64,000 bases of DNA from Pseudomonadota bacterium (GCA_039190005.1 JBCCYM010000002.1:10285-74284), one strand, 5' to 3'; shown: positions 31,831-51,289, numbered from the stretch's first letter. Notes: generated by a model not told the origin, from the letters alone. Program-made: numbers and translations.

Positions 31831-32826
31831 ATGAGTAAAAAATTTCCACGTACAAAAGTAACACATGATTTGTTTTTTCAGCAATCTTTGATGCAGAAAT
31901 CTATCGCATTGGATTTTTTCAAAGCACATTTGCCGCGGAGTGTGCAGTCAAAAATTGATTGGAACAGTTTAACATTAGAGCCAGGACGATTTGTGGCTAA
32001 AGAATATAGAGTGCAATACAGTGATGTGTTGTATTCGGTAAGGCTTTCTGAGGAGTTAGCTTACTTATATATTCTAGCAGAACACAAAAGTTATGGTGAT
32101 CGTTTTCTGCCATTGCAATTATTAAGGTACATGTGTGCCATTTGGCAACGTTATATTGAACAGAAGAGAAAATTAGGGAAAGGACAGGGTTGTTTGCCGA
32201 TGATCTATCCACTTACATATTATCATGGTCGCCAATCGCCTTATCCGTATTCAACCGATATTCGCGATTGTTTTGCCGATAAGGCATTGGCGAAAGCGAT
32301 ATTTGATAAACCATTTCCCTTGATAGATATGACACAATACAGTGATGAAAACTTATTACAGCATGGTAGGGCATCCACATTTGAACTGTTGCAAAAGCAT
32401 ATTTTTGCCAAAGATTTATTAGAAGATATCCAGGAATTGTTGAAAAACAAGCATTTCATAGCGCTTATGCGTGAAACATCTGGTGATTATAGTTTTCAGG
32501 TGTTACAATATATGATAGAGGCAAGTGAGTCTACTCACGCTGATAAATTTTTAAAGCAATTAACCCAACAACTTCCAGAAATAGGTGATCAAATTATGAC
32601 AGTTGGACAACAACTCAGACAGCAAGGCATTGAGCAAGGTATTGAGCGAGGTATTGAGCGAGGCATTGAACAAGGTATTGAACAGGGCATTGAGCGAGGT
32701 ATTAAGCAGGGTAGGACGGTGGAAGCTATGACAATCGCAAGAACGCTCTTAAATCGGGGGATGTCACTTGAAGAAGTGGCGGAGATTACCCATTTATCTT
32801 ATGAAAAGCTTCAGAGAATTAAGTGA
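31831..32826 (+). CDS. rpn: Rpn-family (YhgA-like, PD-(D/E)XK) recombination-promoting nuclease / putative transposase
   Basis: The N-terminal block THDLFFQQSLMQKSIALDFFKAHLP...YSDVLYSV...ILAEHKSYGD matches the conserved YhgA/RpnA motifs (HDxxFK, DxLY, EHQS). The C-terminus has seven or more GIEQG/GIERG hexapeptide repeats and ends LEEVAEITHLSYEKLQRIK. Confidence 0.85.
   Translation: MSKKFPRTKVTHDLFFQQSLMQKSIALDFFKAHLPRSVQSKIDWNSLTLEPGRFVAKEYRVQYSDVLYSVRLSEELAYLYILAEHKSYGDRFLPLQLLRYMCAIWQRYIEQKRKLGKGQGCLPMIYPLTYYHGRQSPYPYSTDIRDCFADKALAKAIFDKPFPLIDMTQYSDENLLQHGRASTFELLQKHIFAKDLLEDIQELLKNKHFIALMRETSGDYSFQVLQYMIEASESTHADKFLKQLTQQLPEIGDQIMTVGQQLRQQGIEQGIERGIERGIEQGIEQGIERGIKQGRTVEAMTIARTLLNRGMSLEEVAEITHLSYEKLQRIK
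32596..32826 (+). CDS. Candidate intragenic RpnS-like small protein (77 aa), in frame within the 3' end of rpn
   Basis: The internal ATG at 32596 is preceded by AGGTGATCAAATT, a Shine-Dalgarno sequence at correct spacing. The identical SD plus ATG context is preserved in the downstream duplicate at 32948. This call is inferred from sequence only. Confidence 0.45.
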   Translation: MTVGQQLRQQGIEQGIERGIERGIEQGIEQGIERGIKQGRTVEAMTIARTLLNRGMSLEEVAEITHLSYEKLQRIK

Positions 32827-33327: not shown

Positions 33328-35214
33328 ATGTCAAGAATTAAGCACCTTGCGCCGATGTTGGCGAATCAGATAGCGGCTGGTGAAGTTGTGGAACGTCCGG
33401 CATCGGTGGTAAAGGAGCTGGTTGAAAATAGCCTTGACGCCGGTAGTAAGCATATTGACATTGATATTGAAAAAGGTGGTATGCGCCTTATTCGGGTGCG
33501 TGACAATGGTATGGGTATTCATGCCGATGATTTAACGTTAGCCATTAGCCCTCATGCCACCAGCAAAATTTATACTCAGGAAGATTTGGCGCTTATCAGC
33601 AGTTTTGGCTTTCGCGGTGAGGCACTGGCGAGTATCAGTTCTGTTTCACGTTTTAACCTTACTTCGGCAACAGCGTCTGAAAACGCAGTTCAGATCAACT
33701 GTGAAGGCAAAGAAAATCATGAAATTTTGCCGGCATCACATCCTATCGGCACGACCGTTGAAGTGCGTGATCTCTTTTTCAATATACCCGCGCGACGTAA
33801 ATTTTTGCGTACCGAAAAAACCGAATTTACGCATATTGAAACATTGGTAAAACGTTTGGCATTGGCAAATTTCCCGGTGCAATTTACTTTACAGCATAAT
33901 CAAAAAACCATTTTTAATTTTTTACCAGCGCATACCGATGAACAAAAAGAACAGCGGGTTGCTAAACTCTGTGGCAAGGAATTTATGCGCCATGCTTTGC
34001 ATATTGACACGGCAGTTACGGGTATTCGATTATATGGTTGGATCGCGCAACCCAGTTTTTCACGCAGTCAAGCGGATTTGCAATATTGCTATATCAATGG
34101 CCGTATTGTGCGCGATAAAATGATCACCCATGCGGTAAAACGCGCTTATCGAGATGTGTTGTATCATGGTCGGTTTCCAGCATTTGTGATTTTTTTGGAG
34201 ATGGAACCTAAGGATGTTGATGTCAACGCCCATCCACAAAAGCTTGAGGTGCGTTTTCATCAAGGGCGTTTTGTCTATGATTTTCTTACTAAGAGTATTG
34301 AGCAGGCACTTGCCGATGTCAGACCGGCAATGCCACAATCATTTACGACATCCGCGCCGCAATCATCACCTAAGTTCTCAATGAATCATCAGCCACGTTT
34401 TAATTTTGCTGTTGAAGAGACAGTGCAAGCCTATAAGGCTTTTCATCATCCGTCGGAAGACCAGCCATATCAAAATAAGCGGCAAAGTGAAGCGACTGAT
34501 ATGCCGACAACAATGTTGCCAAAAAATGAAAAAGCGCAAATCGAAAATATTGCCACGGAAATTGCTAAGCAACAACAATCCAGCAAATTGCCGGAAACGC
34601 TTGAGCGGCGACCGTCAGCTGAGGCGTCTGATATGCCATTGGGTGTCGCCTTGGCGCAATTACATGGTGTTTATGTGCTGGCGCAGAATGATTATGGGTT
34701 GATATTGGTTGATATGCATGCCGCGCATGAGCGTATTGTTTATGAAAAAATGAAAAAAGCTTACGCCGCGCATAATATCGCCACACAGTTATTATTATTG
34801 CCGGTGACCTTAGAACTTAATGCTGAAGAAATACGCTGTGCTGAGAAGCACCAGCAATTTTTGCTTGAGCTCGGTTTAAATCTGGAATTTCTCGGCCCGG
34901 AAACACTGGTGATACGTGAAGTACCGTCAATACTGAGCGCGGACAATATCGCCCAATTACTACGTGATGTGTTATCAGAATTACTTGTTTGTCAAAGCAG
35001 CGATGAAGTCAACAGCAGAATTGATACTATATTATCAACCATGGCTTGCCATGGCGCGGTTAGAGCGAATCGCCAATTATCTTTGACTGAAATGAATAGC
35101 TTATTACGTGATATTGAAACAACTGAACGCAGTGGTCAGTGTAATCATGGACGACCAACCTGGACAGCACTGTCCATGACGGAATTGGATAAATTGTTTA
35201 TGCGCGGTCGTTAA
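33328..35214 (+). CDS. mutL: DNA mismatch repair protein MutL
   Basis: Has the GHKL ATPase motifs ANQIAAGEVVERPASVVKELVENSLDAG and DNGMGI. The C-terminal dimerisation domain is present. Length is 628 aa. Confidence 0.95.
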   Translation: MSRIKHLAPMLANQIAAGEVVERPASVVKELVENSLDAGSKHIDIDIEKGGMRLIRVRDNGMGIHADDLTLAISPHATSKIYTQEDLALISSFGFRGEALASISSVSRFNLTSATASENAVQINCEGKENHEILPASHPIGTTVEVRDLFFNIPARRKFLRTEKTEFTHIETLVKRLALANFPVQFTLQHNQKTIFNFLPAHTDEQKEQRVAKLCGKEFMRHALHIDTAVTGIRLYGWIAQPSFSRSQADLQYCYINGRIVRDKMITHAVKRAYRDVLYHGRFPAFVIFLEMEPKDVDVNAHPQKLEVRFHQGRFVYDFLTKSIEQALADVRPAMPQSFTTSAPQSSPKFSMNHQPRFNFAVEETVQAYKAFHHPSEDQPYQNKRQSEATDMPTTMLPKNEKAQIENIATEIAKQQQSSKLPETLERRPSAEASDMPLGVALAQLHGVYVLAQNDYGLILVDMHAAHERIVYEKMKKAYAAHNIATQLLLLPVTLELNAEEIRCAEKHQQFLLELGLNLEFLGPETLVIREVPSILSADNIAQLLRDVLSELLVCQSSDEVNSRIDTILSTMACHGAVRANRQLSLTEMNSLLRDIETTERSGQCNHGRPTWTALSMTELDKLFMRGR

Positions 35215-35237
35215 TTTTAAATAGTAGAGGTGAGTTT

Positions 35238-35768
35238 ATGACAATACGTGATTTTCAACACTATCATCCTCGCGTTGCTGAAACGGCTTATATTGATCCC
35301 AGTGCCGTGGTGATTGGCAATGTCACCTTGGCAGATGATGTGTCAATATGGCCTTTAACTGTGTTGCGTGGTGATGTGAATTCAATTCAGGTCGGTGCTC
35401 GAAGCAATATTCAAGATCGTAGTGTTGTCCATGTCACCCATTATGACCCTGAATACAGTCCTGACAGTGCCGCTGTGGTGATTGGGGATGATGTGACAGT
35501 CGGGCATGGTGTCATTTTACATGGTTGTACCATTGGTAATCGTTGTCTCATCGGCATGGGTTCGACATTATTAGATGGTGTCGTGATTGAAGATGAGGTT
35601 ATGGTTGGCGCGAATAGCTTAGTACCCATGTACAAAACACTGGAATCCGGCTATCTTTATCTCGGTAGTCCGGTTCAAAAAGTGCGAGCGCTTAAAGAGG
35701 CTGAACGAGCGTTTTTAAAATATAGCGCGATGCATTATGTTGAGCTGAAAAATAAATATGGCACTTGA
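35238..35768 (+). CDS. Gamma-class carbonic anhydrase family / hexapeptide-repeat (left-handed beta-helix) protein, YrdA/PaaY-like
   Basis: Hexapeptide repeats (VIGNVTLADDVSIW, IGDDVTVGHGVILHGCTIGN) are present, with the His ligands typical of gamma-CA. Length is 176 aa. Confidence 0.85.
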   Translation: MTIRDFQHYHPRVAETAYIDPSAVVIGNVTLADDVSIWPLTVLRGDVNSIQVGARSNIQDRSVVHVTHYDPEYSPDSAAVVIGDDVTVGHGVILHGCTIGNRCLIGMGSTLLDGVVIEDEVMVGANSLVPMYKTLESGYLYLGSPVQKVRALKEAERAFLKYSAMHYVELKNKYGT

Positions 35769-35790
35769 ATAGAAAAATCAAACAAAAGTA

Positions 35791-35819
35791 TTGACTTTTA
35801 GCATGGATTGAGCTAGTGT
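35791..35819 (+). promoter_or_regulatory. Candidate sigma70 promoter for the aro leader/operon: TTGACT, 17 bp, TAGTGT
   Basis: A consensus -35 hexamer at 35791-35796 and a weak -10 at 35814-35819. It lies about 10 nt upstream of the leader ATG at 35830. Confidence 0.35.
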
Positions 35820-35829
35820 TGGAAATACG

Positions 35830-35946
35830 ATGATGAATAATAGCTTAACAAAAACAGTTTCTCTTAGCTGGATTAGCTCAGCGATCTCTTTCTTTATCTC
35901 CGCAAAAGGATTTTTTAGCTTCTTTTATTTTGCCCCGTTGGGGTAA
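35830..35946 (+). CDS. Phe-rich leader peptide (38 aa) of the aro/phe/tyr operon. Not in the ORF track.
   Basis: ATG ATG AAT ... translates to MMNNSLTKTVSLSWISSAISFFISAKGFFSFFYFAPLG*. It has 8 Phe, 1 Tyr and 1 Trp. GGAAA lies 6 nt upstream of the ATG. A T7 run (35972-35978) sits between the leader stop and the aroG start (36037). Confidence 0.55.
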   Translation: MMNNSLTKTVSLSWISSAISFFISAKGFFSFFYFAPLG

Positions 35947-36036
35947 TATCATTATAAACTAAAACTATCAATTTTTTTCCTAAAACTGGCGCAGAAGTGT
36001 ATTCTGTAATGATCAATTAACGTCGAGTGATAAGCG

Positions 36037-37086
36037 ATGACTAAAATAAGTAATACAAATATTCATGAGATAAAACCATTATTATCCCCTGAAATGGTAC
36101 TCCATGATTTACCGATGAATGATAAGATTCGTATACATGTCCAATCGGGACGACAACAATTAGAAGCAATTATTAAAGGTGAAGATAAACGACTAATTGC
36201 CATTGTTGGTCCCTGTTCGGTTCATGAAAAAGACGCGGCACTGGATTACGCGCGTAAACTGAAAGTAGTGGCGGAAGCCATGAAAGATAAACTGTGCATT
36301 GTCATGCGAGTCTATTTTGAGAAACCGCGCACCACGGTGGGCTGGAAAGGACTGATTAATGACCCTTATCTTGATAACAGTTTTAATATTAACGCGGGAC
36401 TGAAATTAGCAAGAGAGCTATTGCTGGAAATTAATACACTTGGTCTTTTTGCCGCGACAGAGTTTGTCGATACATTCACCCCACAATATATTGCCGACCT
36501 CATTTCTTGGGCCGCTATTGGTGCAAGAACGGTTGAGAGCCAACCGCACCGTATGTTAGCTTCGGGTTTATCTATGCCTGTGGGGTTTAAAAACAGTACC
36601 ACTGGTGATGTGGAAGTCGCTGCTAATGCTGTGGCAGCTGCGACCAATCCGCATCGTTTTCTTGGTGTGACACAAAACGGGCTGGCAGCAATTGTCAATA
36701 CCAAAGGGAATGATAATTGTCATATTGTTTTACGTGGTGGTAAAAGTGGCACCAATTACAGTGCCGAACATGTCAACATGGCCGCGGCCTTACTGGCTAA
36801 ACATCATCTGCCACAAGGTATTATGATTGATTGCAGCCACGGTAATTCTAACAAAGATTTTAGACGACAGGCGGATGTCGTTGATGCTATTTGTAAACAG
36901 TTACTGCAAGGGTCAAGTCATATTATGGGCTTAATGATTGAGAGCAACTTATTAGAAGGTCGTCAGGATTTTGAACCCGGTGCAAAACTCGTTTACGGCA
37001 AAAGTATTACCGATGCTTGCATCGGCTGGGAACAAACAGAAATATTGTTAAACACGTTAGCAGAAAAAGTTAACATAGGGGGTTGA
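36037..37086 (+). CDS. aroG: 3-deoxy-7-phosphoheptulonate (DAHP) synthase, class I-alpha
   Basis: IVGPCSVHE, KPRT and GARTVESQ motifs. Length 349 aa. Confidence 0.95.
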   Translation: MTKISNTNIHEIKPLLSPEMVLHDLPMNDKIRIHVQSGRQQLEAIIKGEDKRLIAIVGPCSVHEKDAALDYARKLKVVAEAMKDKLCIVMRVYFEKPRTTVGWKGLINDPYLDNSFNINAGLKLARELLLEINTLGLFAATEFVDTFTPQYIADLISWAAIGARTVESQPHRMLASGLSMPVGFKNSTTGDVEVAANAVAAATNPHRFLGVTQNGLAAIVNTKGNDNCHIVLRGGKSGTNYSAEHVNMAAALLAKHHLPQGIMIDCSHGNSNKDFRRQADVVDAICKQLLQGSSHIMGLMIESNLLEGRQDFEPGAKLVYGKSITDACIGWEQTEILLNTLAEKVNIGG

Positions 37087-37973
37087 TGATGAATAATGAA
37101 CTAGAAAATTTAAGAAAACAAATTAATGACATCGATAGTCAGGTGCTCGATTTAATTACTCAACGTGCTGAAGTAGCAAAGTTAGTGCTAGCCAGTAAAT
37201 TGAAAATGGCTGGCGGTGAAGCACCACAGATTTTTTTCCCGCAGCGTGAACGGGAAGTGATTGCACGGCTGATTGACAAAAATACCAGTGCTTTGCCAGG
37301 ACAGTCAATCGCTAGTATTTTTCAGGCAATTATGAACGCCTGTCGCAATCTGCAAATTACTATGTTGGCTGACACGAAAGACGCGCCAAAAGCTAAGGCG
37401 TTAAAAATAAGTGTTCAAGGTATTGAGCACAGTTATTCGCATCAGGCAGCCGTTGAGTTTTGTAATCGTCGAAAATTGCCAAATTATAGGATTGATTATG
37501 CCGTTTCCAGCAACAATGTTCTCGATCATGTTGTTTCAGGAAAAACTCAGTATGGTATTGTCGCGCTTAATAACGCGCAGGGCGGTTTGGTTGATGAGAC
37601 CATCAAGGCCTTAACGCGGCATAACTATAATATTGTCGATAGCGTTGTCTTGCCGGTTGAACATAGTTTGTTAGTGCTGCCTGGGACAAAAAAAGAACAA
37701 ATTACCCATGTCTATTCACATTCGCAGGCATTGAGACAGTGCGCTGCTTATCTTAAAAAGGAATATCCCAACTGCAAACAAATTGAATGGGCGGATACGG
37801 CACTTTCTGCCAGTGATTTAGCTGCTGGGAAAATTGACAAACACAGCGCGGTTATCGCGCATGCGAATTGTGCTAAAACCAATGGTTTGAATATTCTGGA
37901 TCAAAATATACAAGATCTGAAAAATAATGAAACCTTGTTTTTAGTTGTTAACGCGGGATCGGCTAATGGCTAA
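37083..37973 (+). CDS. pheA: bifunctional chorismate mutase / prephenate dehydratase lacking the C-terminal ACT regulatory domain
   Basis: The N-terminus carries the AroQ chorismate mutase motif LRKQINDIDSQVLDLITQRAEVAKLV. The prephenate dehydratase core follows (GIEHSYSHQAA...TRF-like). Length is 296 aa, against about 386 aa for E. coli PheA. Confidence 0.85.
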   Translation: MMMNNELENLRKQINDIDSQVLDLITQRAEVAKLVLASKLKMAGGEAPQIFFPQREREVIARLIDKNTSALPGQSIASIFQAIMNACRNLQITMLADTKDAPKAKALKISVQGIEHSYSHQAAVEFCNRRKLPNYRIDYAVSSNNVLDHVVSGKTQYGIVALNNAQGGLVDETIKALTRHNYNIVDSVVLPVEHSLLVLPGTKKEQITHVYSHSQALRQCAAYLKKEYPNCKQIEWADTALSASDLAAGKIDKHSAVIAHANCAKTNGLNILDQNIQDLKNNETLFLVVNAGSANG

Positions 37974-38712
37974 ACATCAAATTGGCATTTTAGGTTATGG
38001 TCGCTTCGGGCGTATTATGATGCGCCTGTTAGCGTCAGATCATGAGGTTTTTTTCTATGATGTGAATGACAATTTGCATCAAGAACAATCTTTCAAACCG
38101 CTACAGGATCTGTTGAAACTGCCTGTGTTGATTTTGGCGGTGCCAATCAATCAAATGGAAACAGTGCTTAAGCAAATTTCTGCGCATTTAAGTACACAAA
38201 CAGTGATTGATGTTTGCTCGGTTAAAATCTATCCAACTCAATTAATGCTCAACTATCTGCCGGAAAAAGTCAATGTGATTGCGACACATCCTATGTTTGG
38301 TCCAGACTCATACGGTAGCCAAGGTCAAAAAAATATGATGATGTATCCAGCCAGAGTATCAAAGGCAATCTTTCAACAATGGCATGATTATTTTTTAGCA
38401 AAAGATCTCAATGTTTGTATCATGTCGCCGGAACAGCATGATCGCGAGAGTGCTTTTTCTCAAAGCCTGACCCATTTTTTAGGTCGGGTGTTGAATGAGA
38501 TAAACTTGCAAGACACTGATATTTCAACCGAAGGTTATCGAAGTTTGTTAAAAATTGTCGAGCAAACCTGTAATGATAGCTGGGAATTGTTTCAAGACAT
38601 CTTGCAATATAATCCATATGGCGAAACAATGATTGAACAACTTAACGCAGCAACGGACAACGTAGTCCATAAATTAAAATCAAGTAATCAGAGAGGTGAT
38701 GATGGCAAGTAA
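37966..38712 (+). CDS. tyrA: prephenate/arogenate dehydrogenase
   Basis: Rossmann motif GILGYGRFG and the conserved HPMFGP motif. The ATG at 37966 overlaps the pheA stop (ATGGCTAA). Confidence 0.8.
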   Translation: MAKHQIGILGYGRFGRIMMRLLASDHEVFFYDVNDNLHQEQSFKPLQDLLKLPVLILAVPINQMETVLKQISAHLSTQTVIDVCSVKIYPTQLMLNYLPEKVNVIATHPMFGPDSYGSQGQKNMMMYPARVSKAIFQQWHDYFLAKDLNVCIMSPEQHDRESAFSQSLTHFLGRVLNEINLQDTDISTEGYRSLLKIVEQTCNDSWELFQDILQYNPYGETMIEQLNAATDNVVHKLKSSNQRGDDGK

Positions 38713-39796
38713 TAGTTTTGGTAATTTATTTCGTATTACCACCTGGGGTGAATCACATGGTAAAGGCATTGGCGTGGTCATTGATGGTTGTCCTGCCGGA
38801 TTGCCATTATCAGAAGAAGAGATCAATATTGAATTGCGTCGACGTGCGCCGGCCGGTAATAATCCTTATACCACACCACGCAAAGAAGCGGATTTTGGTG
38901 AAATCTATTCCGGTGTGTTTGAAGGCAAAACAACCGGCGCGCCGATTGCAATTATTATTATGAATAACAATGCTGATTCCAGTAAATACGAACCCATTAA
39001 AAATTTACTGCGTCCGGGACATGCCAATTATACCTATTTAGAAAAATATGGCTGTTTTGATTACCGTGGTGGCGGTCGCGCATCGGCACGGGAAACCGCT
39101 TGTCGTGTCGCCGCGGGCGCGGTTGCCAAAAAATTGCTTGCCCATTACAACGTTGAAATTGCCGCGTTTATTCGATCAATTGGCACGGTAAACGCGGAAG
39201 AAGTGTTTTCGGATATTAAAGCATTGAAACAGCAACGCGATAATAGCCCGGTTTATTGTCCTTCGCCTGTTGCCGCTGGGAAAATGATGCAGGCGATCAG
39301 TGCCGCCAAAGAAGCGGGTGATTCATTAGGGGGTGTTGTTGAATTCGCGGCACATGGTTTACCTATTGGACTTGGTGATCCGGTTTATGAAAAAATCGAA
39401 GCCAATTTAGCCAAAGCGATGATGAGTTTACCGGCAACAAAAGGGTTTACCATTGGTGAAGGGTTTAGTGCCAGCACCATGTTAGGCTCAGCACATAACG
39501 ATACTTTCCATGCTGAAGATGAGCAAATAAAATTAACGACGAATAAAGCCGGCGGCACCTTAGGTGGTATTACTACCGGTGAGGTATTGCGTGGTCATGT
39601 CGCGTTTAAACCGACCTCTAGTATCAAAAAACAACAACAGTCGGTTAATCTTCAAGCCGAAAATAAAACATTTAAACTGCCTGAAGGCTCACGCCATGAT
39701 CCTTGTGTGGCTATTCGCGCGGTGCCGGTGGTTGAAGCGATGGTGGCATTAACACTTGTTGACGCCTTGTTGCTTAATCGTTGTGTCAAACTGTAG
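38696..39796 (+). CDS. aroC: chorismate synthase
   Basis: SFGNLFRITTWGESHG, GGRASARETA, and a C-terminus conserved with AroC. Confidence 0.95.
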   Translation: MMMASNSFGNLFRITTWGESHGKGIGVVIDGCPAGLPLSEEEINIELRRRAPAGNNPYTTPRKEADFGEIYSGVFEGKTTGAPIAIIIMNNNADSSKYEPIKNLLRPGHANYTYLEKYGCFDYRGGGRASARETACRVAAGAVAKKLLAHYNVEIAAFIRSIGTVNAEEVFSDIKALKQQRDNSPVYCPSPVAAGKMMQAISAAKEAGDSLGGVVEFAAHGLPIGLGDPVYEKIEANLAKAMMSLPATKGFTIGEGFSASTMLGSAHNDTFHAEDEQIKLTTNKAGGTLGGITTGEVLRGHVAFKPTSSIKKQQQSVNLQAENKTFKLPEGSRHDPCVAIRAVPVVEAMVALTLVDALLLNRCVKL

Positions 39797-39804
39797 TGGC
39801 TGTG

Positions 39805-40917
39805 ATGAAAACTTTAGCATTAAAACATCGACAAGGTATTTGCAATATTCATATTGGTAATCATATTATTGAAAATGAGTTACTGCTGCAAGCATGTCAT
39901 CCGCTTGCCAATCATTTTGTCATTATTTCAGACAGTAATGTCGCGCCTTTATATGCTGAACCTATTCTCAATCAGTTAGAGAAAGCAAACAAAAAATGTG
40001 AGTTATTTACCATCACTGCCGGCGAGAAAAGCAAAACCCGCGAAGTCAAACAAACACTAGAAGATAACATGCTAGCTGCGGCTTGTGGACGAGATACCGC
40101 TATTATTGCCATTGGCGGTGGTGTAGTGACCGATTTATCCGGTTTTATTGCCGCGACTTATTGTCGTGGCATTAAAAGTATTTATGTGCCGACAACGCTG
40201 CTTGCCATGGTCGATGCCGCGATTGGTGGCAAAACAGCAGTGAATACCCCGTTGGGTAAAAATATGATTGGCTGTTTTTATCAACCACATCATGTGTTTT
40301 GTGATGTCGGCACGTTAGCGACATTGCCTCATGATGAGCTTGCCAATGGATTGGTGGAAACCATTAAACACGCGCTTATTTTAGATAAAGATTTTTTCTT
40401 TGCGTTGGATAAGCTCTACACGCAAAAACAATTATCAGCTGTCCAGCTAGAACAATTGATTCATCGCAGTTGTGAGATTAAATGCGGTGTGGTTGAAAAA
40501 GATGAATGTGAAATCAGTGGAATGCGTCAGCTGGTTAATTTTGGTCATACTGTTGCCCATGGGATTGAACGCTTAATGGATTATAATGTCAGCCATGGCC
40601 AAGCTGTGTTGATTGGATTATGGGTTGAAAGTTGTTTGTCCAATTTATTGGGTTATTTAAGTGATCAGGAATTTGCTTGTATCACAAACAGTTTAGAAAA
40701 AATTAAATTTTCTAAACCGATAGATTTATCGATTCATCAACTTGATCAACTCAAAGAGAACATGATATTAGACAAAAAGTCAGTCGGTAAACAAGCACGT
40801 TTTGTCTTGCTTGATAACATCGGTAAAGCGCGTTATCACGACAAGCAGTTCAGTTTTTCAGTCCCTGAAAAAATAGTAGATAAAGCATTCATATTATATT
40901 TGGAGGTGAACCAATGA
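39805..40917 (+). CDS. aroB: 3-dehydroquinate synthase
   Basis: GGGVVTDLSGFIAATYCRGI, GGKTAVNTPLGKNMIGCFYQP and HGIERL motifs. The ATG is at 39805. The track ORF begins at TTG 39781, overlapping the aroC stop. Confidence 0.95.
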   Translation: MKTLALKHRQGICNIHIGNHIIENELLLQACHPLANHFVIISDSNVAPLYAEPILNQLEKANKKCELFTITAGEKSKTREVKQTLEDNMLAAACGRDTAIIAIGGGVVTDLSGFIAATYCRGIKSIYVPTTLLAMVDAAIGGKTAVNTPLGKNMIGCFYQPHHVFCDVGTLATLPHDELANGLVETIKHALILDKDFFFALDKLYTQKQLSAVQLEQLIHRSCEIKCGVVEKDECEISGMRQLVNFGHTVAHGIERLMDYNVSHGQAVLIGLWVESCLSNLLGYLSDQEFACITNSLEKIKFSKPIDLSIHQLDQLKENMILDKKSVGKQARFVLLDNIGKARYHDKQFSFSVPEKIVDKAFILYLEVNQ

Positions 40918-42341
40918 AATCCATGTTAACAGTGACCATTCCGGTATCAACAATAGAGCGTGCGCGGCAACATATTGCCGAAGTTGCCCATCAAGCGGAT
41001 TTGCTTGAGATAAGATTAGATTATTTAAAAAATCCTGATATTGAGGCATTAAAAAAACTAACAGCTGATATAACTCTGCCTTATATCTTAACCTTGCGCA
41101 GTAAACAACACGGTGGATTATTTTCTGGCGATGAAACGACACGCTTACATTTAATTAAAACCTTATTAGCAGCCAAGCCCGATTATTTGGATCTTGAAAT
41201 TGATGTAGAAGATCGTTATATCGACGAAATTCATGCCCAATATCCGGAAGTAAAGTTAATACGTTCATGTCATGATTTTAAACACACACCTGAAGATTTA
41301 TCTGCCATTTTAGAAAGAATGCGTCATCCGGCGATGAGTGTTTACAAAATAATTACCTATGCCAATTCCTCGCTTGATTCATTGCGTATGATGAATTTTG
41401 TCAAGCAACAATCCTCGCAACATCACATTGTTGGCCACTGTATGGGCGAAGAGGGGGTATTTAGTCGTATTGCCGGCGCGGTGATGGGTAATCTATGGAC
41501 TTATGTGGCTGTTGATACTGAGTCCGCAGTGGTAAGCCATCAATTGACCTTGTCTGATTATCACAATATTTATTTTTTACACAAAAAAAATAGCGATACA
41601 AAATTATTCGCCTTGCTTGGTGATCCAGTTATTTATAGTCTGGGCCATATTTTTCACAATAAAAACTTTGATCAACATGACATCAACGCGCTTTATTTAA
41701 AAATAAAAGTGTCGTCTGAACAATTAACGTCGCTTTTTGCCTTAATCAAAACACTGCCTTTTTTTGGTTTTAGCGTGACAACGCCGTTGAAACAAGAGGT
41801 GTTACCTTATGTCCGTAATCTTTCCGGTTTGCAGGCGGTGAATACACTTTCGGTTGAAAACGGTGAGATTTCGGCCATCAATACTGATGGTTTGGGGACG
41901 CTGGACGCGATTGAAGAAATTGTTAAAGTAAAAGATAAGAAAGTATTATTACTCGGTGCCGGTGGTGCCGCGAAAGCGATTGCGCAAGCCGCTCATGATC
42001 GTGGCGCCGATATGACCATTGCCAATCGAACATTTGCCAACGCTGAGAAAATAGCGCGACTGTTCCCCGCTAAAATTATTGATTTTTCAGTGGAGGATAA
42101 CACGCTTTATGACATTGTCATCAACGCTTTGACTTTAAATGTCTTTGAGCAAGCGACATTTATTGACTGGCTAAGCCATATTTTACAGCGGCAACCTTTG
42201 GTGATGGATGTTAATTATAACCGTGCCGATAATCCACTGTTAAGCCTATGCGAAAAATATAACTGCCAGGTCATTCGTGGTGAAAAAATGTTTGTTAACC
42301 AAGCATTGGCACAATATCGCTATTGGTTTAATAAGCAATAA
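40914..42341 (+). CDS. Bifunctional type I 3-dehydroquinate dehydratase / shikimate 5-dehydrogenase (AroD-AroE fusion)
   Basis: The N-terminal half (LLEIRLDYL...LTLRSKQHGG) is a type I DHQase. The C-terminal half (VLLLGAGGAAKAIAQAAHDRGADMTIANRT) is an NADP-binding shikimate dehydrogenase. Length is 475 aa. Confidence 0.85.
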   Translation: MKSMLTVTIPVSTIERARQHIAEVAHQADLLEIRLDYLKNPDIEALKKLTADITLPYILTLRSKQHGGLFSGDETTRLHLIKTLLAAKPDYLDLEIDVEDRYIDEIHAQYPEVKLIRSCHDFKHTPEDLSAILERMRHPAMSVYKIITYANSSLDSLRMMNFVKQQSSQHHIVGHCMGEEGVFSRIAGAVMGNLWTYVAVDTESAVVSHQLTLSDYHNIYFLHKKNSDTKLFALLGDPVIYSLGHIFHNKNFDQHDINALYLKIKVSSEQLTSLFALIKTLPFFGFSVTTPLKQEVLPYVRNLSGLQAVNTLSVENGEISAINTDGLGTLDAIEEIVKVKDKKVLLLGAGGAAKAIAQAAHDRGADMTIANRTFANAEKIARLFPAKIIDFSVEDNTLYDIVINALTLNVFEQATFIDWLSHILQRQPLVMDVNYNRADNPLLSLCEKYNCQVIRGEKMFVNQALAQYRYWFNKQ

Positions 42342-42387: not shown

Positions 42388-43674
42388 ATGTCTAATTATC
42401 ACATAAAAGCTAGTCAGTTATCGGGTAGCATTGCTATACCGGCGTCAAAATCACAAAGCATTCGTGCTATTTTATTCGCGACAATGGCAAAAGGTGTCAG
42501 TACGGTTGAAAATTATTTAAACTCACCCGACATCAAAGCGATGGTATCCGCTTGTCGTCAACTTGGTGCTGAAATAGAACAACAGGATAATAAATTATTA
42601 ATAACAGGTGTTGATGGTAACCCGAACACGCCTGATGATGTCATTGATTCGGGTAACTCAGGACAAGTGTTGCGATTTGTCGCTTGCCTTGCCGGTTTGC
42701 AAGATCACTATGTTGTCTTAACCGGTGATGCTTCTATTCGTCATAACCGACCGGTTCAACCTTTGTTGGAAGCCTTGCCTAAATTAGGGGTGCAGTGTGA
42801 ATCCTTGCGCGGTGATGGTTACGCGCCACTGATTATCAAAGGGCCATTTCAAGGCAGTGAAACAACGTTAAGTGGTGAAGATTCACAACCGGTATCTGGC
42901 TTATTAATGGCGCTTGCTTTTAAACAAGGTGTTTCCACCATTACCGTTCGCAATCCAGGTGAAAAACCATGGGTAAATTTAACCTTGAAGTGGTTTGATC
43001 GCTTTGGGATTTCCTATAAAAATGATAATTTCGCCAATTATCAAGTCACCGGCAAAGCGCGAATTTCGGCATTCAATTATCGTGTGCCCGGTGATTTGAG
43101 TTCTTTAGCCTATCCATTGCTTGCTGCGTTGGTCACGCATTCTGAAATTACCATTACCGATGTCGATATGAATGAACCGCAGGGTGATAAAGCGATTGTT
43201 GAGGTCTTCAGAAAAATGGGCGCGAAGATTAGTATGAATGAACAGGAAAGAACCTTAACTGTCCATAAAATAGACTTTTTGCAAGGCATTGAAGTCGACG
43301 TCAATAATTTTATTGATTGCGTGACCATTATTGCTGTAGCGGGTTGTTTTGCTCAAGGCACAACAAAAATTACTGGCGCCGAGATCGCACGGACAAAAGA
43401 ATCCGATCGCATTTCGGCAATTACCCGTGAATTGAAAAAAATGGGCGCGAATATAGAGGAGTTGCCTGATGGATTAATTGTGCAGCAATCACAGTTACAC
43501 GCGGCAAATGTTGATAGCTATCATGACCATCGCATCGTCATGTCGCTAGCGGTTGCCGCGCTGACTATTAAAGAAGAAACGATTATCCATGATGTTCGCT
43601 GTGTGCAAAAAAGCTTCCCTAATTTCGATGGTATTTTTCAGTCATTAGGAGGGAATATAGTCAGTGAAGCTTAA
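42388..43674 (+). CDS. aroA: 3-phosphoshikimate 1-carboxyvinyltransferase (EPSP synthase)
   Basis: Starts IPASKSQSIRAILFA and carries the LGNSGQVLRF-like motif (SGNSGQVLRFVA). Length 428 aa. Confidence 0.95.
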   Translation: MSNYHIKASQLSGSIAIPASKSQSIRAILFATMAKGVSTVENYLNSPDIKAMVSACRQLGAEIEQQDNKLLITGVDGNPNTPDDVIDSGNSGQVLRFVACLAGLQDHYVVLTGDASIRHNRPVQPLLEALPKLGVQCESLRGDGYAPLIIKGPFQGSETTLSGEDSQPVSGLLMALAFKQGVSTITVRNPGEKPWVNLTLKWFDRFGISYKNDNFANYQVTGKARISAFNYRVPGDLSSLAYPLLAALVTHSEITITDVDMNEPQGDKAIVEVFRKMGAKISMNEQERTLTVHKIDFLQGIEVDVNNFIDCVTIIAVAGCFAQGTTKITGAEIARTKESDRISAITRELKKMGANIEELPDGLIVQQSQLHAANVDSYHDHRIVMSLAVAALTIKEETIIHDVRCVQKSFPNFDGIFQSLGGNIVSEA

Positions 43675-44206
43675 ACATATTGCCTTAATTGGTCTGAAAA
43701 GCTGTGGTAAAACGACTGTAGGGCAAGCGCTTGCCAAGCAGCTTGACTATCGCTATAACGATACCGATCAGATCATTGAACATTTATATGTTGATCAAGC
43801 GGGAGAGCGTCTTGATTTTCGATCCATTTATCAAAAATTAGGCAATGATCGATTTCGCCAACTGGAAACGCAAGCAATCGAGCAAGCTGTTGCTAATCGC
43901 GCGCCATCAGTGATTGCCACGGGTGGTGGCAGTTTATTAAATCAGCACAATGTTGAAAAGCTTGTTCAACATAGTGTGATGATTTATCTTAAAGCCAGTG
44001 TTGATACCTTAAAAGAAAGATGGCTAGCACGTCCACCATCGTTTATTAATCCTAAAAATCTATCTGAAGAACTGAGCAACTATTACGCTAAGCGGGCAAA
44101 AACCTATACAGGTATCGCCACTATTACAATAGTGGTTGATGAAAAAACGCCTGATGAGATTGTTACTGATATTATTATGGCACTAAATACTTTAGCTAAG
44201 ATGTGA
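43664..44206 (+). CDS. aroK: shikimate kinase
   Basis: Walker A motif IALIGLKSCGKTTVG. Length 180 aa. It overlaps the aroA stop. Confidence 0.9.
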   Translation: MKLKHIALIGLKSCGKTTVGQALAKQLDYRYNDTDQIIEHLYVDQAGERLDFRSIYQKLGNDRFRQLETQAIEQAVANRAPSVIATGGGSLLNQHNVEKLVQHSVMIYLKASVDTLKERWLARPPSFINPKNLSEELSNYYAKRAKTYTGIATITIVVDEKTPDEIVTDIIMALNTLAKM

Positions 44207-44221
44207 GTGATTTACCACAAT

Positions 44222-44309
44222 TGTCATTCTCGCGCAGGCGGGAATCCAGGGAACAAGCTACAAGCATACACATTGTTCTCCTGGATTCCCGCTTGCGCGA
44301 GAATGACGA
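44222..44309. mobile_element. A NIME/MITE-like element with roughly 30-bp terminal inverted repeats, each itself a dRS3-like hairpin. It is followed by degenerate gaatgac repeats to about 44350.
   Basis: The left end is tgtcattctcgcgcaggcgggaatccaggg. The right end is cctggattcccgcttgcgcgagaatgacga, in inverted orientation. Each end contains ATTCYCGC-N4-GCGRGAAT. It lies immediately downstream of aroK and is a likely operon terminator. Confidence 0.7.
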
Positions 44310-44422: not shown

Positions 44423-45604
44423 ATGAGTGATCTAATCGTAGAAAGACTAAAGCATATTCAGCTATCGCCAGCCATGGCCATAGCGGCTCACGCGACTGAG
44501 CTGAAGGCTGCTGGCATTGATATTATTGATTTAAGTGAAGGGCAGCCTGATTTTGATACACCTGAACATATCAAACAGGCGGGCATTAAAGCCATCACTG
44601 AAAATTTTACCCGTTATACCAATGTCAGTGGCACACTTGAACTGAGACAAGCGATTTGTAATAAGTTAAAGCGTGATAATCAATTGGATTATCAACCCGC
44701 GCAGATTTTAGTGTCTTGTGGCGCTAAACACAGTATTTATAACGCTTATCAGGCATTGCTCAATCCAGATGATGAAGTGATTATCCAAACACCTTATTGG
44801 CCCTCCTATGTGAGTATGGCTTGGCTTGCTCAGGCAAAACCGGTGATTGTGGAAACCTCTTTCGCTCAGAATTACAAAATGACAGCCGAGCAATTGGAGA
44901 AAGCCATTACGCCTAAGACAAAATTGCTTATTCTCTGTAGTCCATCCATCAGTGGTACGGTTTATTCACATGCCGAATTGCAGGCATTGGCAGAAGTGCT
45001 GATAGAGAATCCCCATGTTTATATCATCAGTGATGATATTTATGAAAGCATTTACTGGGCGGATGAGCCCTTTAGAAATCTTGTCATGCAAAACAACGCA
45101 CTTTATGATCGCGCCATTGTGACCAATGGTGTTTCCAAAGCCTATGCCATGACCGGTTGGCGTATCGGTTATGCTGCCGGTCCTCAAACGATTATTGATG
45201 ATATGCGAAAATTGCAATCGCACAGCACTTCAAACGCGACTTCTATTGCGCAAATTGCCGCCCAGGCCGCGCTTGAAGGTTCGCAAGAATGTGTCGCCAA
45301 AATGACACAGGTTTATCATGAAAGACAGAAAATTGTCTTAGCAGCCTTGAATGCTATCGATGGCTTTTGCTGTAATGAAACCCAAGGCGCGTTTTACTTT
45401 TTCGTTGAAGTGTCTCAAGCCATAAAAAAATTCAAGCTTAAAGATGATGTTGAATTTTCACAGCTTTTGTTAAAAGAAGCGAAAGTGACAGTTGTGCCTG
45501 GATCAGGATATGGTTTGCCAAACCATATACGCATTTCATACGCGACAAGTGAGGCATTGCTTATAAAAGCATTGCAACGGATAAAGCAATTATGTCGGAA
45601 TTAA
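44423..45604 (+). CDS. class I PLP-dependent aspartate/aromatic aminotransferase
   Basis: A 393-aa protein. The SKAYAMTGWRIGY motif contains the PLP-binding Lys. The TNPxNPTG-like region reads SPSISGTVYS. Confidence 0.85.
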   Translation: MSDLIVERLKHIQLSPAMAIAAHATELKAAGIDIIDLSEGQPDFDTPEHIKQAGIKAITENFTRYTNVSGTLELRQAICNKLKRDNQLDYQPAQILVSCGAKHSIYNAYQALLNPDDEVIIQTPYWPSYVSMAWLAQAKPVIVETSFAQNYKMTAEQLEKAITPKTKLLILCSPSISGTVYSHAELQALAEVLIENPHVYIISDDIYESIYWADEPFRNLVMQNNALYDRAIVTNGVSKAYAMTGWRIGYAAGPQTIIDDMRKLQSHSTSNATSIAQIAAQAALEGSQECVAKMTQVYHERQKIVLAALNAIDGFCCNETQGAFYFFVEVSQAIKKFKLKDDVEFSQLLLKEAKVTVVPGSGYGLPNHIRISYATSEALLIKALQRIKQLCRN

Positions 45605-45678
45605 AACAATGCGATTATAAAATTGAGAGATTAATAAAAATGTTAACATTCAAAATTAAATCAATACGGTGGGTCATC

Positions 45679-46392
45679 ATGAAGCATGTCATGGTGTCTG
45701 CTTTCTTGTTGAGCGCCTTAGTTACTGTATCAATTCATGCCGCCACAAAGCCATCGACATTAGTTGTCGGCACAACGGGCGATTATCCGCCCTTAACACG
45801 TTATCATCCTGACACGCGGACTTTTAGCGGCAGTGCTATCCAGTTGATTGAAGCGTTCGCAAAAGCCACGCATCGGCGGATTAAATTTGTTCGGACTACC
45901 TGGGTGGATTTATCAAATGATTTGCAGCAGGGTAAATTTCAAATGGCTGTAGGTGGTATTTCATCATCACCTGAAAGAGCTAAGTTATTTCTTATGTCGG
46001 ATCCAGTGTTGCGTTTCGGCAAAGTTGCCTTAGTGCGTTGTGGTGATGAAGGAAAATACAATACATTGAAAAAAATTGATTGTTATCCTACCCGCGTGGT
46101 TGAAAATCTTGGTGGTACGAACGCGCAATTTGCTCATGACCACATAAAAAATGCTGTCTTGATTATTGTGCCAAAAAATGCGTTAACCTTTGACTATTTA
46201 ATCCACAACAAGGCGGATGTTATGTTTACCGATTCAACGGAAGCTATATATCGTCAGCAACAGCATGATGGTTTATGCGCGGTTAATCCTGCAAAACCTT
46301 ATACGAATGAAACTAAGGTTTTTTTATTTAGAAAAAATGAGCAAGCATTGCGGCAACAGTTTAATGCGTGGTTAAAAACACAGCATAAATAA
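45679..46392 (+). CDS. Periplasmic solute-binding protein family 3 (SBP_bac_3). It is an orphan and a candidate cyclohexadienyl dehydratase (PheC-like).
   Basis: Signal peptide MKHVMVSAFLLSALVTVSIHAA, then an SBP_bac_3-type fold (LVVGTTGDYPP...). No ABC permease or ATPase genes are adjacent. It sits next to aro genes and an aminotransferase. The track ORF starts at 45592, overlapping the aminotransferase. Confidence 0.55.
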   Translation: MKHVMVSAFLLSALVTVSIHAATKPSTLVVGTTGDYPPLTRYHPDTRTFSGSAIQLIEAFAKATHRRIKFVRTTWVDLSNDLQQGKFQMAVGGISSSPERAKLFLMSDPVLRFGKVALVRCGDEGKYNTLKKIDCYPTRVVENLGGTNAQFAHDHIKNAVLIIVPKNALTFDYLIHNKADVMFTDSTEAIYRQQQHDGLCAVNPAKPYTNETKVFLFRKNEQALRQQFNAWLKTQHK

Positions 46393-46483
46393 TGTCTCCT
46401 GACAAGCTCAGATTTACATTTTGATAAGCATTAGTTACAATCATGCTAAATCTTAATGTATTTTTGAATAAAATAGGTAAAAA

Positions 46484-47854
46484 ATGAACTCAACGGCTGC
46501 TAATAGTAATAAAAAACTGGTGTTATTAGCCGCATCATTAATTACTTTCATATGTTGTACTGATTTTTCAATTGTGTTTACAATCATCCCTGCCATTCAA
46601 AGAGACCTGGGCGCTAACATGAATCAATCGCAGTGGTTAATGGTTGGTTTTACGTTAACGGCAGCTGCTTTTTTTATTACATTAGGTCGTTTTGCCGATT
46701 TAATAGGACATAGAAAATTATTATTTCTTGGCGTCATCGGCTTTGCTGTGAGTTCACTGCTGGCTGGATTGGCGCGATCGCCGTCCTTATTGGTAACAAT
46801 GCGTTTATTACAGGGGATTTTTGTCGCGGCGGCATTGCCAGCAAGTATGGCAATTATCTCAGACACCTTTCCGATAAAAGAACGCGGTAGAGCTTTGGGC
46901 ATTTTTAACAGTGCAACAGGTATTGGATTGGCGGCTGGGCCAACTATTGGCAGTTTGGTTATATACTATCTTACTTGGCGCTGGGTTTTCTTTCTTAATA
47001 TACCGATTGCAGCCATTGCGTTAGTTGTTGGTCTGGTATCGATTAAAGAATCCAAAATAAGTAAAGTGGCAGTTGATTGGCTGGGGACAGTGCTATTGAC
47101 CATCACAATTGGCGCAATCTTATATGTTATCAGCCAGGTAAGTTATTATGGCTGGCACGGTCTGGTGATGTGGGCGCTGCTTATTTTCTTTGTGTCACTG
47201 ATATTGCTGGTAATTGTGGAGTGTAAAGTAAAACAACAAGTCATACCGTTTAAACTATTTTTGAATAAGGGATTTATTTTAGGCGCGATGCTTTTTTCAG
47301 CGACTGTTGGTTTTGCCTGGTCTGTTATGATGATTATGCCGATTTACCTGCATAAGCAGCTTGGTTTTAGCATTGAAGCCTCCGGTCTACTGATTTTTGT
47401 TATGACCTTGATGACAATTATCGCGCCGATTGTTGCCGGACACTGGTTTGATAAAAAAAATAAAGTTGTTGCCATGCATGTGACTTTTCTGCTTAGCTTT
47501 TTGGGCTTATTGTTATTCGCGATGTTGCAATCGTATGGACCGATGTGGTTACTTATTGCCGGTTTTATTATTTTTGGTTTTGCCTGGGGCGCCGGTAATG
47601 GTATTTCAATACCGTTCGCGCTCGCGGAAGCCGGCGCCGATGAAAATGCCGGTGTGATAGGTGGTGGATTAGTTTGTACACTCTATATTGTGGCAGTATT
47701 TACCTTGACCATATTTATGGCTATTTTTCATCATAGCAGTGCTAATTTACCCTTTGCCATGAGAATGCATCATGGTTTTTATTTTTTAATGGTTTGTTTA
47801 TTGTTTTTTTGGTTGTTTTCGACAGTGAAAGCAAGCGCAACGGTTTCTAAGTAG
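46484..47854 (+). CDS. MFS transporter, DHA2 (14-TMS EmrB/QacA-like) family
   Basis: A 456-aa protein with about 14 hydrophobic segments. [13 protein letters not shown] is the loop 2-3 motif. Confidence 0.8.
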
Positions 47855-47865
47855 GTTTTATTTAT

Positions 47866-49059
47866 ATGACAACAACAGATTTAACTTTAATAAAAAAAGG
47901 TTTAGAAGAAATTCTAGTTGAAGAAGAACTCGAGCAAAAACTTAATTCAGGTCAGGTATTGCGTGTTAAAGCCGGATTTGATCCTACCGCACCTGATTTG
48001 CATTTGGGACATACGGTATTAATCAATAAACTAAGACAATTTCAGGATTTAGGGCATCAGGTCTATTTTATTATTGGTGATTTCACCGCGATGATAGGTG
48101 ATCCCACCGGCAAAAATAAAACCCGGCCACCATTGAGCAAAGAAGAAGTGGTGGAAAACGCTAAAACCTACGAAAAGCAGGTGTTTAAAATACTGGATAG
48201 AGATAAAACCGAGATTGTGTTTAATTCCGCGTGGTTGAGTGAATTGTCACCGGATCAACTGGTGCGTTTGGCATCCAATTACACCGTTGCGCGCATGTTG
48301 GAGCGTGATGATTTTGGCAAGCGTTACGCCAGTAATCAACCGATTGCGCTGCATGAGTTTTTGTATCCATTGTTCCAGGGGTATGATTCAGTGGCGCTAG
48401 AATCTGACTTTGAACTTGGCGGCACCGATCAGAAATTTAATTTGTTAGTGGGCAGAGAGTTACAGCGACAACATCAGCAACGTCCGCAAACGGTGCTGAC
48501 ATTGCCGCTGCTGGAAGGTTTAGATGGCGTTGCCAAAATGTCAAAATCGCAGGGTAACTATATTGCCATTGATGACGCGCCGACCGAAATGTTTGGTAAG
48601 CTGATGTCTTTGTCGGATACCTTAATGTGGCGTTATTATGATTTGATCAGTTTTAAAACACCTGATGAAATCGATCAACTAAAACAATCCGTTGCTGATG
48701 GCAAAAATCCACGCGATGTCAAAATCGTATTGGCAAAAGAGATCATTAGCCGTTTTCATAGCAAGATCGATGCTGATGCCGCTGAAGTCGATTTTATTCA
48801 GCGCTTTCAGAAAAACCAGATGCCTGAAAACATTCCCGCAATAAATTTACCGACGGTTAATGGCGAGTTAGGCATAGCGCGACTGTTGAAAGAAGCGCAG
48901 TTGGTTTCCAGTACCTCTGAAGCGAATCGCATGATCAATCAGGGCGCGGTCAGAATAGACGGTGAAAAGATCAGCGATCGCACATTGCAACTAAAATCAG
49001 GCACGCATCATATCTATCAAGTTGGCAAGCGTCATTTTGCTCAGGTAAAATTGGATTAG
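47866..49059 (+). CDS. tyrS: tyrosyl-tRNA synthetase
   Basis: HIGH motif (PDLHLGH), KMSKS motif (KMSKSQGN) and a C-terminal S4-like domain. Confidence 0.95.
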
Positions 49060-51122: not shown

Positions 51123-51267
51123 GATAAGATGAGAGTGTACTCTTCGACAGGTTCAGGGCAGCAGGCTCAGGGCCCTCAGTCTTAACGTATAAGATGGCTG
51201 AGCTTGTCGAAGCCAGAGCACGTACTTGGAAAACTTGTGATGTTCTTTGACCGGGCTCAGGGACCTT
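51123..51267. repeat. Mosaic intergenic repeat: a family A variant plus a family B unit (cgtataagatggctgagcttgtcgaagcc...)
   Basis: Sequence ctcttcgacaggttcagggcagcaggctcagggccctcagtcttaacgtataagatggctgagcttgtcgaagccagagcacgtacttggaaaacttgtgatg...gggctcagggacc. The family B unit recurs twice at 62535-62720. Confidence 0.85.
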
Positions 51268-51289
51268 AGGCGCCACTGCCGTTTAAGGT

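Follow-up and report, generated by a model that had tools for sequence, protein, structure and literature searches.

What does a short, phenylalanine-rich open reading frame (ORF) do directly ahead of an operon that covers the complete common shikimate pathway together with pheA and tyrA? The question is raised by a stretch of 64,000 nucleotides (nt) from a Pseudomonadota bacterium, the whole of which is called the window here, in which a first-pass annotation had noted such an ORF upstream of the 3-deoxy-D-arabino-heptulosonate 7-phosphate (DAHP) synthase gene aroG and had likened it to the ribosome-mediated attenuators PheL and PheM. Our analysis suggests that the ORF is very probably a leader that senses phenylalanine and tyrosine and acts in cis. 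Rho-type termination as the output of this leader is plausible, and we place it somewhat short of even. The full proposal, in which a translated leader senses charged tRNA-Phe and tRNA-Tyr on behalf of the operon with Rho-type termination or polarity as output, would in our judgement be about evenly poised.

The ORF, read from the sequence, and its aromatic codons are as follows:

35830..35946, plus strand: leader ORF, 38 codons with an ATG start, translating to MMNNSLTKTVSLSWISSAISFFISAKGFFSFFYFAPLG and then stop
35911..35931, plus strand: aromatic codon run F28 F29 S30 F31 F32 Y33 F34 (UUU UUU AGC UUC UUU UAU UUU), the putative regulatory codons

Translation and gene boundaries bear out the annotated position of the leader, which lies in a gap of 268 nt: a gamma-carbonic-anhydrase-like gene (35238-35768) precedes this gap and the DAHP synthase gene, starting at 36037, follows it. 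The eight phenylalanine codons first reported, six of them clustered, become seven on recount, with five of the seven inside GFFSFFYF; one Tyr and one Trp codon are present, as described. Of the last 12 codons, 6 specify Phe or Tyr, where shuffled sequences of equal base composition would lead one to expect 2.2 (P=0.0006), and the C-terminal half of the peptide is hydrophobic. A look-up of the exact peptide found no record of it as a called gene. A tRNA-like string within the leader, GGATTAGCTCAGC, was considered and discarded, as a tRNA check did not recognize it and it is not conserved.

The first-pass annotation had staked its reading on conservation of the phenylalanine run in relatives, and the aromatic run is kept in seven other lineages. 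Relatives were chosen as carrying the closest AroG proteins (53-72% identity), and their contigs, all metagenomic, were fetched; the comparison set comprises eight lineages, namely the window, L079, L080/L081, L082, L083, L084, L085 and L118. Complete leaders are available for the window and six relatives, that of L083 being cut inside the hairpin described below by the end of the contig. In all seven further lineages the DAHP synthase gene is immediately preceded by a short ORF with a terminal aromatic run (…FYF[T/A]…stop). The C-terminal parts of the complete leaders, each up to the stop codon, read:

L079: …SFVSAKGFFYFTPLG
L080/L081: …HANRGSYFCAFYFTL
L082: …DFAAPYFFYFTR
L084: …CCVFFKNVYHFYPLG
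L085: …LFARGFFSLFYFTR
L118: …ARVSAYYFSAFYFAR

Each of the seven complete leaders keeps the frame open between start codon and hairpin, and their composition-based probabilities multiply to 10^-5.6. Across these leaders the last 12 codons hold 4-6 Phe or Tyr codons versus ~2.2 expected from same-base shuffles, and this count tops both other frames in six of the seven. Codon usage also follows the peptide: an N-terminal S-L-T is retained through synonymous changes in the window, L079 and L082 (AGC TTA ACA versus AGT CTA ACA), and the [K/R]-G that precedes the Phe run is encoded as AAA GGA, AAA GGC, CGT GGC or CGT GGT. Moreover, the window and L079 differ by an indel of exactly 9 nt, in frame, between two conserved nucleotide anchors. 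These synonymous changes and the in-frame indel, taken with the promoter-like geometry described below, point to translation of the leader in a way that is indirect but coherent. The upstream neighbour is a gamma-carbonic-anhydrase-like gene in the window, the divergent aroA-aroK unit in L080-L085 and a LigT-like gene in L118; since these neighbours differ between lineages, the leader is linked to the DAHP synthase gene itself.

The start of the leader is preceded by two promoter-like hexamers:

35791..35796, plus strand: -35-like hexamer TTGACT, read directly, a candidate promoter element
35814..35819, plus strand: -10-like hexamer TAGTGT, 17 nt past the -35-like hexamer and 10 nt ahead of the ATG, likewise a candidate

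The annotated TTGACT is thus present and its geometry recurs in relatives, and its role as a promoter element stays putative. A -35-like hexamer (TTGACT, TTGACA, TTGGAA or TTAGAA) is found at an equal distance from the leader ATG in L079, L082, L084, L085 and L118. An identical TAGTGT with identical spacing occurs in L085, and TAGACT (L118), TACGCT (L082) and CACACT (L079) lie 6 nt ahead of the leader ATG. Overall, six of the seven leaders show a -35-like hexamer, 17-18 nt, a TAnnnT-like hexamer (TAGTGT twice, TAGACT, TACGCT, TAATTA and CACACT) and then 6 or 10 nt to the ATG. This geometry would predict a transcript that is leaderless or has a leader of 3-5 nt, starting ~3-5 nt before the leader ATG. 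Because the predicted start is so close to the ATG, the GGAAA at 35821-35825, which had been annotated as a ribosome-binding site and is not conserved, would lie at or before the 5' end of the RNA and probably has no such role. A Shine-Dalgarno (SD) sequence is absent from most leaders and present at the aroG genes.

The best-conserved nucleotides of the element form a hairpin around the leader stop codon:

35930..35946, plus strand: hairpin, with 5' arm UUGCCCC (35930-35936), loop GUU (35937-35939) and 3' arm GGGGUAA (35940-35946)

In the window the stop codon UAA (35944-35946) is within the 3' arm. The consensus, UUUU[A/G]CCC(C)-loop-(G)GGGUAA(A), has a 5' arm that starts in the last Phe codon, and it is found in all eight lineages, the truncated L083 included, with a folding energy of -9.2 kcal/mol in the window and -7.5 to -10.1 in the relatives (RNAfold). 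The stop codon is in the 3' arm (UAA) in the window, L079 and L084, and in the loop (UAG or UAA) in L080, L082, L083, L085 and L118. Loop length ranges among lineages between 3 and 5 nt, CCC and GGG are 4 or 5 nt apart, and a single pair is A-U in some lineages and G-U in others. F-Y-F (TTY TAY TTT) stands immediately 5' of the hairpin in six of the seven complete leaders, L084 having Y-H-F-Y instead. RNAalifold applied to six spacers recovered just the three invariant C-G pairs of this hairpin. The hairpin may correspond to the 1:2 pause hairpin known from classical attenuators, and its near-invariant sequence may additionally be read by a further factor.

The pattern TTTTRCCC-N3-5-GGGTAA occurs once in the 64-kb window versus 0 expected. 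An AroG search of genome contigs returned only relatives of at most 56% identity, none of them with the hairpin, and a metagenome scan with the hairpin plus FYF pattern returned at least 80 loci; among the matches listed only L118 is genuine, the other 79 being chance or unrelated.

Many of the chance matches share one recurrent sequence, …CIYFYFTHLGNGL(I/N)G(M/T)VWYNNLRQINRISGLSRAKAR in one frame, on contigs from human-gut and other metagenomes (L089, L091, L097, L099, L100, L103, L112, L115, L123, L129, L143, L144, L149, L153 and L166). It appears to be a widespread repeated element with no relation to aroG.

Between hairpin and aroG lies a segment of unusual composition:

35947..36036, plus strand: spacer from the leader to aroG, with a weak aroG SD (GAG) near 36023

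In the window the first 41 nt (35947-35987) are free of G, and a T7 run occupies 35972-35978, 25 nt beyond the leader stop. Summed over seven lineages, whose sequences are barely alignable here, 70 C and 19 G occur within 50 nt downstream of the hairpin; the segment from hairpin to SD has 89 C versus 39 G and a minimum free energy (MFE) of 0 to -14 kcal/mol. Comparably G-poor, C-rich windows of 50 nt make up only 0.4% of those in neighbouring plus-strand genes, which have more G than C overall. In composition, the spacer is rut-like (resembling a Rho-utilization site): untranslated, unstructured, G-poor and richer in C than in G beside the stop codon of the upstream ORF (uORF).

Combining these features, we tentatively propose a starvation attenuator free of intrinsic terminators, in which the Phe/Tyr codons of a near-leaderless uORF are fused to a stop-codon hairpin and stalling of a ribosome would keep Rho off a rut-like spacer, that is, the geometry of tnaC and speFL with tRNA charging as input. 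Leader translation, the transcription start, the involvement of Rho and the direction of regulation are what we infer in this scheme. Transcription would start a few nt before the leader AUG. With Phe and Tyr plentiful, the ribosome would pass the F/Y run, terminate at the stop codon within the hairpin and leave; the hairpin would re-form, ~60-100 nt of untranslated, unstructured, G-poor RNA with more C than G would be exposed, and Rho or Rho-linked polarity would end transcription in this spacer before aroG is translated. With Phe or Tyr scarce, the ribosome would stall at F-Y-F, whose codons overlap the 5' arm, keep the hairpin open and cover the proximal spacer, so that RNA polymerase could get to aroG and the operon would be expressed.

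Several observations weigh against this scheme. The Rho step is proposed from spacer composition and from the exclusion of alternatives; YC-dimer counts in the spacers are modest (4-7), and at 58-106 nt the spacers are short for a rut site. The least secure part is the role of the hairpin, as the model has no clear need of this best-conserved element. None of the eight sequences has a compensatory double change in the stem, so the structure is conserved rather than proven, and an RNA-level role is suggested by the variable loop length and the single A-U/G-U switch. At the 5' end, a consensus promoter scan did not call the window promoter, because its -10 hexamer matches at only three of six positions, and the leaderless start is least secure in the window, because transcripts reading through from the same-strand gene upstream could have a long 5' untranslated region (UTR). 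Finally, the leader is absent in three related lineages (L208, L209 and L086/L087), where promoter-like sequence abuts aroG; the element is accessory and patchy.

Other explanations have to be weighed against the Rho-type attenuator. Control of translation or mRNA stability with no premature termination, either at aroG initiation by an ermC-like unmasking or through decay via the AU-rich spacer, is unlikely. RNase E substrates and S1-dependent translation enhancers are typically AU-rich and unstructured, like the spacer, and two relatives show local structures at the aroG SD, namely a possible 11-bp helix between leader codons and the SD in L080 and a local hairpin over the SD in L082. The best pairing that could form a helix sequestering the aroG ribosome-binding site is no better than in shuffles in all seven sequences and has a different position in each, and this site takes no part in the hairpin, the only conserved structure.

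We regard as quite unlikely the classical attenuator of the PheL/TrpL type, in which ribosome stalling would tip the balance from a 3:4 intrinsic terminator, ending in the T7 run, towards a 2:3 antiterminator. The aromatic leader and the stop-overlapping hairpin do occupy the place of the classical 1:2 structure, a T-run lies 25-35 nt past the hairpin in 4-5 of the eight sequences, and distant AroG loci (L038, L040/L049, L055, L057/L072 and L058) pair aromatic leaders with strong canonical terminators. However, while the T7 run that had been annotated after the stop is present, it does not serve as a terminator tail, for no stem adjoins it and no G+C-rich stem precedes it in the window. A consensus scan found no intrinsic terminator between the leader and aroG, and a relaxed scan (stem of at least 4, at least two GC pairs, at least 4 T of 8) returned only the conserved hairpin, whose U-tail is poor. 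Folding of 35800-36040 gives an MFE that does not beat shuffles (z=-0.37). Masking a ribosome footprint, whether placed at the last F/Y codon, two codons before it or at the stop codon, brought out no consistent alternative structure. No downstream (2:3) partner for the 3' arm of the hairpin beats shuffles, of which a fraction of 0.19-0.96 did equally well or better. In L080, L082, L084 and L118 the segment from hairpin to SD has an MFE of 0 to -2 kcal/mol, and there is therefore no room there for a terminator or antiterminator.

Neither the window nor any relative examined has a terminator/antiterminator pair, and the mutually exclusive 2:3 and 3:4 hairpins ending in the U-run, for which the first-pass annotation had advised a fold, did not emerge. 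The covariance search that it had also advised gave no Rfam match in the region 34500-37500 even at E<=10, Phe_leader (RF01859) included, nothing relevant in the whole window at gathering thresholds or in ten related loci at E<=1, and no leader family upstream of aroG in five relatives at E<=1. L079, L080 and L085 could form extended AU-rich '1:2' stems, long hairpins with the T-run at their base; the window and L118 could not, and this reading was dropped for its inconsistency. Canonical intrinsic terminators are modestly more frequent in this genome than in shuffles (30 versus 20.5±4.5 in 20 kb). Since the fold, terminator, partner, ribosome-binding-site and Rfam tests are all negative, a PheL/PheM-type mechanism is unsupported for this clade.

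That the nascent peptide itself is the sensor, as in the TnaC and SpeFL arrest peptides, with …[K/R]GFF…FYF[T/A](PLG|R|L)-stop stalling the ribosome at or near the stop codon on a free metabolite, is very unlikely. Peptide conservation does extend beyond the aromatic residues, with [K/R]-G encoded by unrelated codons and with recurring ends FTR-stop, FAR-stop and PLG-stop, and the stop codon always lies inside the hairpin beside a rut-like spacer, like those of tnaC and speFL. Yet several Phe/Tyr codons in variable arrangement are needed by a sensor of tRNA charging and not by an arrest peptide, ligand-induced stalling would have the wrong sign, inducing a biosynthetic operon while its product is in ample supply, the N-terminal halves are unconserved and conservation of the C-terminal part is confounded with the RNA hairpin.

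Least probable of all is that the ORF is no regulator, but encodes a small hydrophobic protein or arose by chance in U-rich DNA, with the palindrome TTTTACCC…GGGTAAAA serving as a DNA operator or other element: the near-invariance of a stem with no compensatory covariation, the hydrophobic half of the window peptide and the lack of the element in three related lineages would suit it, but a dimeric DNA-binding protein would poorly tolerate half-sites spaced by either 4 or 5 nt, for which reason an RNA hairpin is favoured over an operator, every one of the seven complete copies retains the frame, start codon and F/Y run, the peptide of L085, being strongly basic, is unlike a membrane peptide, and the linkage is always to the DAHP synthase gene despite differing neighbours.

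The Phe/Tyr-sensing leader proposed here would serve eight same-strand genes, aroG-pheA-tyrA-aroC-aroB-aroDE-aroA-aroK, whose ends overlap or nearly abut; the gene content given in the first-pass annotation agrees with NCBIfam:

36037..37086, plus strand: class I-alpha DAHP synthase of the AroF/G/H family (NCBIfam PRK12755, 511.7 bits; aroFGH, 495.8)
37086..37973, plus strand: chorismate mutase/prephenate dehydratase (P-protein, pheA) lacking the ACT regulatory domain (Pfam, NCBIfam)
37966..38712, plus strand: prephenate dehydrogenase (tyrA)
38702..39796, plus strand: chorismate synthase (aroC)
39805..40917, plus strand: 3-dehydroquinate synthase (aroB)
40914..42341, plus strand: fused 3-dehydroquinate dehydratase/shikimate dehydrogenase (aroD-aroE), 475 amino acids (aa), best NCBIfam match the bifunctional PRK09310 type
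42388..43674, plus strand: 5-enolpyruvylshikimate-3-phosphate (EPSP) synthase (aroA)
43664..44206, plus strand: shikimate kinase (aroK/L)
44223..44307, plus strand: 28-bp inverted repeat, 96% complementary with a 29-nt loop, 17 nt past the aroK stop

The DAHP synthase scores below the cutoff of the AroG equivalog and just over that of the AroH subfamily. The P-protein (295 aa) matches only CM_2 and PDT in Pfam, and its NCBIfam alignment covers positions 1-284 of a 386-position profile. The P-proteins of L079-L085 are similarly long (287-293 aa), and the more distant L118 homologue (364 aa) retains the Phe-binding ACT domain. The inverted repeat at 44223-44307, a long hairpin with no U-tail that is unique in the window and is followed by AATGAC-containing repeats, probably delimits the operon at its 3' side, or else is an element resembling repetitive extragenic palindromes (REP).

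Farther downstream (44423-49059) are genes for an aspartate/aromatic-type aminotransferase, a periplasmic amino-acid-binding-protein-like product, a DHA2-family major facilitator superfamily transporter and tyrS, a cluster that may be functionally tied to aromatic amino acids. In relatives the aminotransferase comes after aroK within the divergent aroA-aroK unit. The intergenic region that this unit shares with aroG contains a conserved GAAGTCAAG (L080 ~2765, L084 ~2770, L085 ~2785, L209 ~1088), whose reverse complement includes TTGACT; it probably supplies the -35 element for the divergent aroA-aroK promoter. Elsewhere in the window, a convergent intergenic region past tilS (51130-51270) has repeated GCTCAGGG(C/A)CC motifs, which may be REP-like repeats, and an Rpn/ISNCY-type recombination-promoting nuclease or transposase-like gene (31831-32826) is found immediately upstream of mutL. 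The best named homologues of AccA from the source contig, itself metagenome-assembled, belong to metagenome-assembled genomes (MAGs) of Gammaproteobacteria, Legionellales and Legionellaceae (~67-74% identity), from which we would weakly place the source as a Legionellales-like gammaproteobacterium.

Leader-peptide attenuation is textbook, and nearly all cases described for amino acid biosynthesis use, to our knowledge, an intrinsic terminator/antiterminator pair; it is for such pairs that Rfam models and terminator-based attenuator finders look. The element described here retains the sensing half, a conserved ORF with aromatic codons, and its output half is a single stop-codon hairpin and an unstructured, G-poor spacer. 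If the Rho-dependent output is true, this would be a clean natural case of tRNA-charging control over factor-dependent termination for a biosynthetic operon, and, in lineages poor in canonical terminators, regulators of this kind would systematically escape terminator-based searches. The probable regulatory logic for the whole shikimate, pheA and tyrA operon is induction by Phe/Tyr limitation, in an uncultured host, probably a Legionellales-related gammaproteobacterium, whose P-protein has lost its allosteric ACT domain. Aromatic leaders ahead of DAHP synthase genes, moreover, are widespread in Gammaproteobacteria and missing from Rfam.

Among known systems, the E. coli leader peptides PheL and PheM end in …FFFAFFFTFP-stop and …FFFYFST-stop, respectively. 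The leader resembles pheL-pheA and pheM-pheST (Rfam RF01859) in being a short ORF with Phe codons near its stop codon upstream of a Phe-pathway gene, in a hairpin that involves the regulatory codons and the stop region, and in its presumed input, charged tRNA. Unlike pheL and pheM, it has no intrinsic terminator or antiterminator and no Rfam match, has Tyr codons alongside Phe, precedes an eight-gene operon led by DAHP synthase and probably lacks an SD-containing 5' UTR. The absence of a terminator, the invariant stop-codon hairpin and the near-leaderless start therefore set the clade element apart from the Rfam Phe_leader family.

A second counterpart is aroR-aroF of Corynebacterium glutamicum (Neshat et al. 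2014), a DAHP synthase leader peptide with Phe-Tyr-Phe, where, as later sources present it, Phe limitation raises transcription (PMC11802643, PMC4046766); a leader peptide made with no ribosome-binding site is recorded for C. glutamicum ilvB in a reference cited in PMC4046766. Here too a Phe-Tyr-Phe leader stands before a DAHP synthase gene (F32-Y33-F34 in the window; FYF in six of the seven leaders). In contrast, aroR-aroF is actinobacterial and terminator-based, our operon is far larger, and the stop-codon hairpin with its G-poor spacer is specific to the clade. Common descent is unlikely and the likeness would be functional. The sensing half fits pheL/pheM, and aroR-aroF especially well.

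More distant DAHP synthase loci, in Hahella, Marinobacter, Bermanella and gammaproteobacterial MAGs, also have aromatic leaders, each followed by strong canonical terminators; coordinates are those of the individual loci, and peptides run to the stop codon:

L055, 2657-2785: aromatic leader ORF of Hahella sp. SMD15-11, …GQYWFYFWFNQG
L058, 2670-2804: aromatic leader ORF of a Marinobacter MAG, …FFWWFGYGFYFSQHPGHS
L057, 2604-2780, and L072, 2617-2793: aromatic leader ORFs of Bermanella MAGs, …SYWYSAVFYFGYFSHTPNHH
L040, 2725-2862, and L049, 2759-2860: further aromatic leader ORFs, …FAGAFFSWGYWFVT
L038, 2749-2823: further aromatic leader ORF, MTKQASTYFFYFMFINPAKSLESL

These leaders share the downstream gene family with ours and again contain F-Y-F (…YWFYFWF…, …GYGFYFSQ…, …AVFYFGYF…, …TYFFYFMF…). 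They differ from ours in having G+C-rich terminators with U-tracts, often Trp codons, and no UUUUACCC/GGGUAA hairpin, and they look like classical Phe/Tyr/Trp attenuators. No Rfam family covers them and the literature searched holds no description of them, although older comparative-genomics papers could mention them. L038 also has, downstream of aroG (4486-4641), a sub-threshold Rfam Phe_leader match (30.3 bits versus a gathering score of 55), which may be a pheA attenuator.

For the putative output half, the closest parallels are uORF-controlled systems of Rho-dependent attenuation, namely tnaC, speFL, cruR, mgtL and corL (PMC12360218). As in tnaC-tnaAB, speFL-speF, cruR and mgtL-mgtA, the decisive codons are at the 3' end of a short ORF, an untranslated rut-type spacer follows and there is no intrinsic terminator; as in these systems, a ribosome stalled on the leader is predicted to shield the spacer. 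Unlike them, which sense free ligands, ions or proline codons and control mostly catabolic or transport genes, the leader ahead of aroG would read the charging of Phe- and Tyr-tRNA and pass it, through a putative Rho output, to a biosynthetic operon.

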